This document shows positions 9,541-10,495 of a stretch of 64,000 nucleotides of DNA, piece by piece. The notes below the pieces were generated by a model. That model was not told the origin of the DNA, made no database searches, and was given only the letters and a program-made list of their open reading frames with translations. The position numbers and the translations under genes are program-made. Positions within the stretch are counted from its first letter, which is position 1; each line of letters starts with the position of its first letter. Source of the stretch: Escherichia coli (GTDB lineage Bacteria; Pseudomonadota; Gammaproteobacteria; Enterobacterales; Enterobacteriaceae); the NCBI RefSeq assembly GCF_003018115.1, contig NZ_CP027457.1; one strand, written 5' to 3'.

Positions 9541-10014
9541 TTAATTCAGGCACTGAGTGCGGATATATTCCTGAAGCGTTCTCAATGCGGCCTGATCGCT
9601 GATGATTCCGTCTCTGATACCGAGAACGTTTCGTCCAGCAACTGGAGAGAGTTCGACGGAGGCATCATTGCCCACGCCGGAGGTGGTGGGGGCTTCACGC
9701 ACGGAGCCTGGACAGGTGGCGTTGATCCGCAGGCGCTTACGACCAGCGGCAACATCAGCACGCAGAGTTTCATTTTCAGCTCTCGCATCGGCTAATTCCC
9801 TCGAGTATTTTGCATCGAGCGCAGCAACATCGCGCTGGCGCACCTGCATATCAGTAATGGTTGCGTTTGCCTGCTCCAGCTCTCTGGCTTTTTTATCGCG
9901 CTGCGCTTTGTAGGTGATGGCGTTATCGCGGTAATGATTCAGCCCCAGACTAAGCGCACCACAGACCACCAGCAGAATAACGGTAAACGCGGAAAGCATT
10001 CGGTTTATGCTCAC
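9541..10014 (-). CDS. Rz: i-spanin Rz
   Basis: 157 aa with an N-terminal TM segment, a coiled-coil periplasmic part and ...[14 protein letters not shown]. Rz1 is embedded in the +1 frame. Confidence 0.9.
9582..9773 (-). CDS. Rz1: o-spanin Rz1 (lipoprotein), embedded in Rz
   Basis: [15 protein letters not shown] lipobox followed by a proline-rich mature part (PPPPPAW). Lies fully inside Rz in another frame. Confidence 0.85.
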
Positions 10015-10142
10015 TCCAGCAGCCCCGACGAAGACAACATCATCCAGCCCATGGAAAGAAAAAGAGCAACCAGCATTAGTGAAAATGAAATGCCGACGAT
10101 TACACAGAGGATCTTCGCCAGCATTATGAGTTTGTCTGACAT
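10011..10142 (-). CDS. 43-aa single-pass membrane peptide (unknown)
   Basis: ATG at 10142 preceded by GGGAGGA 7 nt upstream. [43 protein letters not shown]. Its stop overlaps the Rz start. Confidence 0.55.
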
Positions 10143-10156
10143 GTTTAATCCTCCCT

Positions 10157-10339
10157 TCACGATTTCAACGCAATGACCAGTTTTGCCAGCCCATACAGTA
10201 TCGGAGACACAGCGATACCAACCGCCACCCACTTAATAGCAAAAGCCAGCGCTCTGCTGATGTCATCACTTACTGGCGCTTTCAGTTCAGGGCCGTTTTT
10301 CATAGTCAACCTCAACAGAATTCGTTTATACTTTTCCAT
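10157..10339 (-). CDS. 60-aa protein with a C-terminal TM helix (unknown)
   Basis: ATG at 10339 with AAGGGAGAAC upstream. [20 protein letters not shown]...[29 protein letters not shown]. The ORF-track GTG start at 10372 abuts a hairpin and is less likely. Confidence 0.55.
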
Positions 10340-10372
10340 GTTCTCCCTTGCCTTATCCAAGGTCAGAAACAC

Positions 10373-10406
10373 AAAACCCCGCTTGCTGCCAACAAACGGG
10401 GTTTTT
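10373..10406. terminator. Bidirectional intrinsic-terminator-like hairpin between R and the small membrane ORFs
   Basis: AAAACCCCG-N15-CGGGGTTTT, a 9-bp stem with U-rich flanks on both strands. Confidence 0.5.
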
Positions 10407-10495
10407 ACTTTTATTCACTTAGGTTTTGCCAGTTCGCAGGATTTCGTGTTATCCGTCCGCGTTGGCCAACGTCATTTTTCAGCAAAATATTCTGC

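Follow-up and report, generated by a model that had tools for sequence, protein, structure and literature searches.

What are the tiny reading frames that lie between the endolysin and spanin genes of some Escherichia coli prophages, and do they take part in lysis? The lysis cassette of lambdoid and Shiga toxin (Stx) phages is among the best-studied gene sets, yet a conserved small gene just before Rz is unannotated in phage 933W. We addressed this question in a stretch of 64,000 nucleotides (nt) of the E. coli contig NZ_CP027457.1 (assembly GCF_003018115.1), hereafter the window, which carries a phage-21/Stx-like prophage. Between its genes R, encoding an endolysin of the signal-anchor-release (SAR) type, and Rz, encoding the inner-membrane spanin, two short open reading frames (ORFs), here called ORF1 and ORF2, are found on the minus strand. 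An initial annotation, made from the letters of the DNA alone, had presented them as two small membrane proteins inserted together, along with a terminator hairpin, in a pinholin/SAR-endolysin cassette. We find that ORF1 and ORF2 are real, conserved, and selected genes whose sequences were already catalogued, and we argue that they would represent two independent small-gene modules stacked in the insertion-prone R-Rz gap of this prophage, for which an accessory role in lysis is our tentative reading.

Two conserved and selected genes between R and Rz

In its long form, ORF1 (10157-10339, minus strand) encodes 60 amino acids (aa), corresponds to entry WP_062896309.1 of the NCBI Prokaryotic Genome Annotation Pipeline (PGAP), and matches phrog_1115 (1.5e-40), one of the three PHROGs families found for it (phrog_1115, phrog_4493, and phrog_3246). 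ORF2 (10011-10142, minus strand, 43 aa) begins 14 nt after ORF1, is preceded by the strong Shine-Dalgarno (SD) sequence AAGGGAGG at 10150-10157, corresponds to PGAP entry WP_001280926.1, and matches phrog_4906 (5.2e-21). The R stop, both reading frames, their ribosome-binding sites, and the spacer of ~90 nt were found at the positions initially given for them; the peptides, which had not been recognised, prove to be catalogued under these accessions and families and, for ORF2, as ECs_1966 = XECs191. Both are labelled "hypothetical protein" in RefSeq/PGAP and fall into families of unknown function in PHROGs. A literature search by accession number and keyword found no functional study of either ORF. 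Neither had a significant match in Pfam, NCBIfam, or PADLOC, the sole Pfam line being DUF3930 at E = 0.13, and a profile search of the PDB returned nothing.

Chance ORFs of such size are frequent, with 56 ORFs of at least 25 aa overlapping the 4-kb stretch around ORF1 and ORF2 in the ORF list; the gene status of both therefore rests on conservation, substitution pattern, and ribosome profiling (RIBOseq). Of 5426 complete E. coli genomes, 989 (~18%) contain at least 80% of the 501-nt region spanning R to Rz, and 2100 (39%) contain some part of it. Both reading frames are conserved among related prophages, and both are carried by the infective temperate phages PhiR12_1-5 and PhiR5_2. Selection was estimated with Nei-Gojobori counts on the unique alleles of the window and 171 fetched loci (172 sequences). 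The prophage collections that supplied these loci are redundant, and shared descent and recombination link the loci to one another, so that locus counts do not equal independent events, and ratios of nonsynonymous to synonymous substitution rates (dN/dS) on such mosaics are approximate. ORF1 is clearly under purifying selection, with a dN/dS of 0.16 to 0.22 against the most diverged full-length alleles, including that of Salmonella, and of 0.27 when pooled, compared with a pooled value of 0.12 for R.

Relatives of ORF2 with 77 to 80% nucleotide identity occur in 276 phage records, including most Stx1 and Stx2 phages and 933W. Moreover, a 12-residue core of ORF2 and the residues K4, S19, F20, S21, and W33 are kept down to 65% identity; when the 30 substitutions separating the window ORF2 from that of 933W were simulated, 3 to 5% of the runs kept the ORF open with a core as hydrophobic. 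In the prophage Sp10 of strain Sakai, the ORF2 homologue is ECs_1966, i.e., the RIBOseq gene XECs191, which Hücker et al. (2017) listed as a translated "novel gene" with one predicted inner-membrane transmembrane (TM) helix (PMC5597208). Its transcriptome and translatome values are 30.0 and 12.6 reads per kilobase per million (RPKM), respectively, with a ribosome coverage value (RCV) of 0.43 (PMC5597208). In 933W (NC_000924, our locus L015), the ORF2 homologue lies at 27438-27569, in the unannotated gap between ant and Rz, and the ATG of its long form overlaps the ant stop (TGATG).

Structure predictions agree with the small single-pass membrane proteins initially proposed. In the AlphaFold model of ORF1, a helix (residues 2-14) is followed by a loop and a second helix (residues 25-59), with 8 Lys/Arg residues on the N-terminal side. 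ORF1 is predicted to be a tail-anchored membrane protein, N-in, with a basic amphipathic N-terminal helix and a C-terminal TM helix. ORF2 is modelled as a single helix (residues 2-38) with a predicted local distance difference test (pLDDT) score of 89. Mean hydropathy of the TM window is 2.0 for ORF1 and 2.9 for ORF2, and both TM helices bear a GxxxS motif. With 4 (ORF1) and ~14 (ORF2) residues beyond this window and a lipobox in neither, the two peptides do not qualify as spanins. Though both TM cores read VxVGIxxS, comparison of ORF1 with ORF2 gave an hhalign probability of homology of 3.6%.

ORF1 belongs to a hairpin-led unit with two putative starts

Upstream of ORF1 lies a bidirectional hairpin of the intrinsic-terminator type (10373-10405, both strands), composed of an A-tract, a CCCCG...CGGGG stem, and a U-tract. 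The hairpin and its U-runs on both strands had been described in the initial annotation; its length had been put at 9 bp, and we found 13 to 15 pairs, with the CCCCG/CGGGG core extended by A-U pairs. The fold has a free energy (dG) of -21.1 kcal/mol (z = -4.9), a value matched by 0 of 200 shuffles, and its GC-rich stem, short loop, and trailing U-tract are those expected of a putative intrinsic terminator. In an alignment of 8 homologous sites, 95% of the cells pair and 4 pairs change on both sides, a covariation reached by 0 of 500 shuffles and lost when the register is slid. A search of 3.3 kb on both strands against Rfam gave no family match, with a sub-threshold rimP-leader line (E = 0.34) over the hairpin only.

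Family loci were scanned with a narrower profile, the wider one being too divergent to use. An A-tract/GC-stem/U-tract hairpin was found upstream of the ORF in 24 of 24 ORF1-family loci (~14 distinct variants), with a dG of -14 to -30 and an end located 52 to 99 nt before the internal Met discussed below. In one locus (L006), spacer, hairpin, and ORF1 follow an endolysin only 33% identical to R, and in four others (L173, L174, L175, and L181) hairpin and ORF follow tail genes. As the hairpin tracks ORF1-family genes behind unrelated genes, it belongs to the ORF1 unit and not to R. The untranslated spacer of 90 nt after the R stop (10406-10495, minus strand), conserved from E. coli to Salmonella, likewise accompanies the ORF1 module behind the unrelated P1-Lyz-like endolysin of L006. 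It contains a conserved mini-hairpin, GGATAACACGAAATCC, and a variable patch whose palindrome depends on the allele (CGTTGGCCAACG or GCGTGGCCACGC). In L175, the ORF1-family gene stands at a prophage end, bracketed by a duplicated pair of terminator-like hairpins (3894-3960 and 4233-4301), an arrangement suggestive of past insertion or recombination at hairpins.

Between the hairpin and ORF1, a leader of 33 nt (10340-10372, minus strand) carries the strong SD AAGGGAG (10343-10349), with which a CCUUG/CAAGG stem partly pairs. With changes in 3 of its 33 columns, the leader varies less than any other segment of the junction, and the window copy folds with a dG of -10.2 (z = -2.3). SD sequestration in the leader was considered as a family trait and rejected: the SD is paired in several predicted folds, the energies of which are no better than those of shuffles outside the window copy.

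Within ORF1, an internal ATG (Met13, 10301-10303) with its own SD GAGG (10310-10313) would give rise to a short form of 48 aa (10157-10303, minus strand). Met13 is invariant in 15 of 15 divergent homologues, with GAGG 5 to 6 nt upstream, and GAGG is kept even where the residues differ (GTG GAG GTA AAC ATG in L175 versus TTG AGG TTG ACT ATG in the window). Many gene callers choose this start, resulting in 48-aa database entries. This dual-start layout suggests that ORF1 yields both a 60-aa and a 48-aa product. Two rare codons ahead of the internal Met, AGG and CGA, are the same in 14 of 15 variants, whereas the Leu and Ile codons next to them drift; the fixed AGG would fit an internal SD of ORF1 better than a promoter.

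The family is narrow; a profile search retrieved only 22 matches in 1.84 billion representative proteins. Distant members share the N-terminal block x-Y-K/R-R-I/F-x-x-R-L-x-M-K-N/D-G-L-E-x-x-A-P and a C-terminal TM helix ending in ALKS, ..LK, or AIRWW. ORF1-family genes are located immediately downstream of five sequence-distinct endolysin types (R21-type SAR, P1-Lyz-like SAR, GH19, GH108+PG_binding_3, and GH19-like+PG_binding_1), usually just before Rz or a DUF2514 spanin.

A promoter-like site opposite the ORF1 5' end

On the plus strand, antisense to the ORF1 5' end and aimed at the hairpin, a promoter-like consensus match (TAGTCA-18-TATACT, 10303-10332) falls within ORF1 codons 3 to 13. 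A promoter scan found a site at the homologous position in the window, L174 (TAGTCA-18-TATAAT, 10/12), L175, and L181, and the site scores 8 to 10 of 12 in all 24 ORF1-family loci; chance alone would give 0.1 to 0.9 such sites per scanned region in L174, L175, and L181, and 3.1 in the 3.5-kb window scan. In the same four loci, no sense-strand promoter was found upstream of the ORF1-family ORF. Together with the terminator, the promoter-like site would define a hypothetical antisense RNA of ~70 nt (10340-10412, plus strand), which would cover the ORF1 start and SD and end at the hairpin (predicted fold dG -20.3, z = -2.95). HnrS/EcOnc10-12, a terminator-ended RNA of 66 nt associated with late genes, was considered as a candidate for this RNA and rejected, as it maps downstream of Rz and has no copy in the window with up to 3 mismatches allowed. 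In Sakai Sp10, coordinate conversion places HnrS/EcOnc11 at ~3440-3510 of our locus L183 (minus strand), i.e., downstream of Rz, on the opposite strand, and on the 3' side of ECs_1967.

Comparison of E. coli with Salmonella points to constraint on this segment at the nucleotide level. The first 43 nt of ORF1 are identical and the remainder is ~26% diverged, and codons for the same amino acid are identical at 13 of 13 positions in codons 2-17 versus 18 of 33 downstream. The conserved Tyr codon under the promoter-like site is TAT in 14 of 14 homologues. The -35 overlaps a conserved Met codon and the -10 overlaps a conserved Tyr-Lys (the -10 of L172 being poor), so that protein constraint and common descent could by themselves yield the promoter-like site. 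The nucleotide-level constraint on the ORF1 5' end is real and may come from the internal SD, from an antisense promoter and RNA, or from both.

ORF2 abuts Rz and overlaps its likely start

Whatever lies upstream, i.e., ORF1, ant, or other mini-TM genes, ORF2 always stands directly before Rz. In the window, the ORF2 TGA (10011-10013) overlaps a GTG (10012-10014) to form GTGA, which bears out the overlap between the ORF2 stop and the Rz start reported initially, with GTG as the likely start. This overlap defines the class I junctions (~130 loci, including the window), in which ATA stands where the canonical Rz ATG would be. The following ATG, at 9999, is the PGAP start of Rz, has no SD, and is missing in one allele. 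In class II junctions, Rz has a good SD and an ATG of its own after the ORF2 TGA. From the GTG, Rz would begin with MSINRML..., with a basic residue before the TM domain (TMD); the Rz of 933W begins with MNRVL..., and since the GTG restores the pre-TM basic residue seen there, it is likely the Rz start. Judged by these residues, the RefSeq start at ATG 9999 looks mis-annotated, and GTG 10012-10014 appears to fit the N termini of lambda and 933W Rz better. Coupling of class I Rz to ORF2 by termination-reinitiation would be the most economical reading of such junctions.

The R-Rz gap holds a variable stack of mini-TM genes

The interval from the R stop to the Rz start was extracted from 163 loci and yielded 72 distinct junctions of 286 to 1528 nt, the content of which differs across related prophages. 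Four peptide types recur: type A (...DFSKLIRE...WKFLLVWxIPFLWVV..LIxAIKG), type B (ORF2), type C (ORF1), and type D (MSAELIRAMAFAIRIVAIAVLVWAIRWW), a truncated ORF1-family member. The commonest content is C+B, as in the window, and C+D, B alone, A+B+C'+D, C+B+C'+D, and ant+A'+B are also found. Type C is alone in a Salmonella locus with an HP1-type holin, ant+B fills the gap of 933W and phi191, and the gap of K-12 Qin is empty, with rrrQ and rzpQ overlapping. The small proteins of K-12 Qin (ynfQ/R and others) were examined as possible relatives and are unrelated. ORF1 and ORF2 are each found without the other and are therefore independent modules, not the joint insertion that the initial annotation had assumed.

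Further mini-genes were noticed in individual loci. In the Stx2a phage Stx2_14040 (L003, 2704-2803), a different small hydrophobic ORF before Rz is interrupted by an in-frame TAG (MAEKLST*KFILIWLVFVIMVSGYFIGQIRWW), and a remnant of an A-type peptide, VFDFSKLIREI, lies upstream of it. In L006 (4744-4833), the start of a 29-aa hydrophobic ORF, MICFVAAFMLACDGRSGWGWFLLVGLIVM, overlaps the stop of the P1-Lyz-like SAR endolysin (ATGA) and represents a further mini-TM gene.

A possible accessory role in lysis

We propose, with a probability of roughly 40%, that ORF1 and ORF2 are late-expressed, non-essential accessory modulators of lysis acting in the inner membrane. The first module would comprise the spacer, the bidirectional hairpin, the 33-nt leader, and ORF1 in its two forms, and the second ORF2, translationally coupled to Rz via GTGA in this allele class. 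No sense-strand promoter was found for either module, and both would therefore be expressed from the Q-antiterminated late transcript. In lambdoid late operons, Q-modified polymerase passes through terminators. The hairpin could stop ordinary polymerase and be read through by Q-modified late transcription. The two peptides would enter the inner membrane, N-in, alongside holin, endolysin, and spanin, and the step that they modulate could be (i) holin triggering, (ii) loss of membrane potential, or (iii) release or activation of the endolysin. By analogy with holin dual starts, the two forms of ORF1 may work as inhibitor and effector. From this arrangement we infer when the genes are expressed, that Rz is translationally coupled to ORF2, and what the peptides do. 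The link to lysis draws on the recurrent position of ORF1-family genes behind five endolysin types and on the constant place of ORF2 ahead of Rz, with the GTGA overlap in ~130 loci. A precedent for a role in lysis is HokW of Sp5, a small membrane toxin that helps phage release (PMC8621323). The variable presence and order of ORF1 and ORF2 and their frameshifted alleles indicate that both are dispensable, and frameshifted alleles are expected for dispensable genes in decaying prophages.

Several observations weigh against such a role in lysis. In Pfam, NCBIfam, and PADLOC, neither ORF has similarity to holin, antiholin, spanin, or defence families. ORF1-family genes are also found after tail-fibre assembly genes at prophage ends, in a myovirus baseplate cluster, and before a tail assembly chaperone, so that their association with endolysins and with the pinholin-SAR cassette is recurrent, not exclusive; the cassette initially described is indeed that of the window, with a PF04971 holin and a SAR-type R, and it is the exclusiveness of the link that does not hold. 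In phages without antitermination, a strong sense-direction terminator would have a polar effect. The RIBOseq signal of XECs191 is low, stems from uninduced cultures, and may reflect spontaneous induction. ORF2 is weakly constrained: the ratio of nonsynonymous to synonymous differences per site (pN/pS) of its intact alleles is 0.52 overall and 0.41 in codons 1-27 (range 0.41-0.58), and its variable sites are distributed 26:26:25 over the codon positions with no third-position excess. Finally, a few frameshifted alleles of both ORFs exist among prophages, and presence, copy number, and order vary.

The alternative that survives best is that module 1 forms a type-I-toxin-like unit under cis-antisense control, the ~70-nt RNA silencing leaky ORF1 expression in the lysogen and being outrun after induction. 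We hold this for possible though not probable, and it would be compatible with a role in lysis. Antisense control accounts for a hairpin that precedes the ORF1-family ORF in any context, and it draws on the promoter-like site shared in position and orientation by the window, L174, L175, and L181 (8 to 10 of 12 in 24 loci), on the frozen synonymous sites of the ORF1 5' end, the TAT codon in 14 of 14 homologues, and the low variability of the leader, and on the small and hydrophobic nature of the product. However, the antisense promoter is a consensus match that could stem from protein constraint or common descent, with a poor -10 in L172, and the invariant AGG is better explained by the internal SD. 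Classical type I toxins have their own promoter, which ORF1 lacks, and no match was found to Pfam or NCBIfam models, known toxin families included, or to Rfam. The pairing of the leader SD is not statistically exceptional in other family members.

It seems unlikely that ORF1 and ORF2 are morons unrelated to lysis, e.g., for superinfection exclusion or as lysogenic-conversion membrane proteins, settled in permissive gaps of the late operon. They do separate two genes that are neighbours in related phages (in K-12 Qin, rrrQ overlaps rzpQ), in a gap that accepts ant and other inserts, with a Rha-family gene nearby, downstream of Rz. Tail-fibre, prophage-end, and tail-cluster positions of the family are classical moron sites, and the patchy presence, the bracketing hairpin pair of L175, and a RIBOseq signal from uninduced Sakai point in the same direction. 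The promoter-gene-terminator layout of morons is nevertheless absent, the hairpin being upstream and no sense promoter being found between hairpin and ORF. Repeated placement behind five distinct endolysins is hard to ascribe to chance, ORF2 appears coupled to Rz, and neither ORF has a PADLOC match.

Less probable still, ORF2 could mainly be a translated leader bringing ribosomes to the Rz start, or recombination could have left the mini-TM ORFs behind as decaying remnants. The GTGA overlap accompanying the loss of the canonical Rz ATG, the pN/pS of 0.41 to 0.58 with variable sites at 26:26:25, the frameshifted alleles of both ORFs, and the interrupted related ORF of the Stx2a phage would all suit this explanation. 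Against it stand the purifying selection on ORF1, the ORF2 core and the five residues kept to 65% identity, hydrophobicity maintained beyond simulated drift (3-5%), and the class II junctions, which keep ORF2 though Rz has its own SD and ATG.

That the spacer and hairpin are a small RNA (sRNA) from the R 3' untranslated region, as the initial annotation had suggested for an R-derived sRNA ending at the hairpin, is very improbable: the 90-nt spacer is conserved, locally structured, and closed by a strong terminator, but spacer and hairpin track ORF1 and not R (L006 with its 33%-identical endolysin; tail genes elsewhere), Rfam gave no match, the Hfq-CLIP table lists no Hfq-bound sRNA near the R 3' flank of Sakai Sp10 (an indirect test, the junction there being of the ant type), and the sRNAs already known from prophages map to other sites (Pas upstream of the holin, HnrS downstream of Rz).

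The accessory role in lysis thus remains the reading that we prefer. In a bolder reading, which we regard as doubtful, hairpin, leader, and ORF1 would form an undescribed, self-contained mobile module encoding a tail-anchored peptide in a long and a short form. The module would be silenced in the lysogen by a cis-antisense RNA with the upstream hairpin as its terminator and would have been recruited repeatedly behind unrelated endolysins as a holin-independent depolariser or lysis timer, and ORF2 would be an Rz-coupled peptide acting on the TM helices of spanin or pinholin via its GxxxS face. As far as the searched literature shows, the independence of the two modules, the hairpin-led family with its putative dual start, the conserved opposite-strand promoter-like site, the recurrent placement behind unrelated endolysins, and the proposed ORF2-Rz coupling are new. 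If the peptides do tune lysis timing or membrane potential, phage release would be affected and, in Stx phages, the timing of toxin release too. The upstream hairpin, dual start, and opposite-strand promoter-like site make up a candidate new regulatory layout for small phage membrane proteins. Even if the ORFs were phenotypically silent, these observations would correct how the ORFs and the Rz start are annotated and document a hot spot of mini-genes.

Surrounding features

On the minus strand, the lysis cassette runs in the order pinholin, DUF1327 gene, R, spacer, hairpin, leader, ORF1, ORF2, Rz/Rz1, and Rha-family gene. The phage-21-type holin (pinholin; 12336-12551, minus strand) matches PF04971 and is separated from R by an inserted gene of 263 aa with a DUF1327 N terminus (11541-12332, minus strand). 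R (10496-11029, minus strand) matches PF00959 (1.5e-24) and has the hydrophobic, Gly/Ala-rich N terminus of a SAR-type endolysin. The inner-membrane spanin Rz (i-spanin; 9541-10014, minus strand) matches PF03245 (6.8e-40), and the outer-membrane spanin Rz1 (o-spanin; 9582-9788, minus strand) lies within Rz, with a lipobox-like LVVSAC and homologous ORFs that carry PF06085. Directly downstream, the Rha-family regulator (8815-9429, minus strand) combines PF09669 with an ORF11CD3 domain. In the closest genome (L001), the Rha position is occupied by a different hypothetical gene of 74 aa, so that mosaicism extends to the flank downstream of Rz. A plus-strand ORF of 233 aa (11091-11792) overlaps the 3' end of the DUF1327 gene and has no Pfam or PADLOC match. 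In a genome that matches the window exactly over the 501-nt R-to-Rz query, the DUF1327 gene is labelled a pseudogene by PGAP, and ~1 kb carries no annotation.

Comparison with known systems

Like the products of type I toxin-antitoxin modules (hok/sok, including hokW-sokW of Sp5, symE/symR, and zorO/orzO), ORF1 is a prophage-borne hydrophobic peptide of at most 60 aa, and a candidate cis-antisense RNA with its own terminator is predicted over its initiation region. Unlike these modules, ORF1 has neither a promoter of its own nor homology to known toxin families.

Morons in the sense of Hendrix and Juhala (e.g., HK97 gp15 and lambda bor) are defined by an upstream promoter and a downstream terminator. 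ORF1 and ORF2 resemble lambdoid morons as extra genes between genes adjacent in relatives, with a patchy distribution and a membrane product, and differ from them by a hairpin located upstream and by the absence of a detectable sense promoter.

Mu gp25 is a small membrane protein of the lysis region, accessory to a SAR endolysin. Compared by description, ORF1 is likewise a small membrane protein in a SAR-endolysin lysis region, unlike gp25 in that ORF1-family genes also follow non-SAR endolysins (GH19, GH108); gp25 has been named a 'releasin' (PMC9239132).

The dual-start holin/antiholin systems (lambda S107/S105 and phage 21 S21-71/S21-68) share several features with ORF1, namely a small inner-membrane product encoded in the lysis cassette, two in-frame starts (putative in ORF1) each with an SD, a longer form with additional N-terminal positive charge, and a TM helix with a small-xxx-small motif. 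Unlike them, ORF1 has one C-terminal TMD, where holins have two or three, and an extension of 12 residues, where holins have 2 or 3. Searches of Pfam, NCBIfam, and PHROGs showed no resemblance of ORF1 to any holin family, relatives of ORF1 are also found away from lysis cassettes, and, contrary to the typical setting of a dual-start holin, the cassette already has its own dual-start pinholin.

P2 LysA is a non-essential membrane protein encoded between the endolysin gene K and the spanin gene lysB, and it affects the timing of lysis. Compared by description, LysA (~141 aa, several TMDs) is larger than ORF1 and ORF2 (43-60 aa, single TMD), and it shares with both a position between endolysin and spanin, a membrane location, and dispensability.

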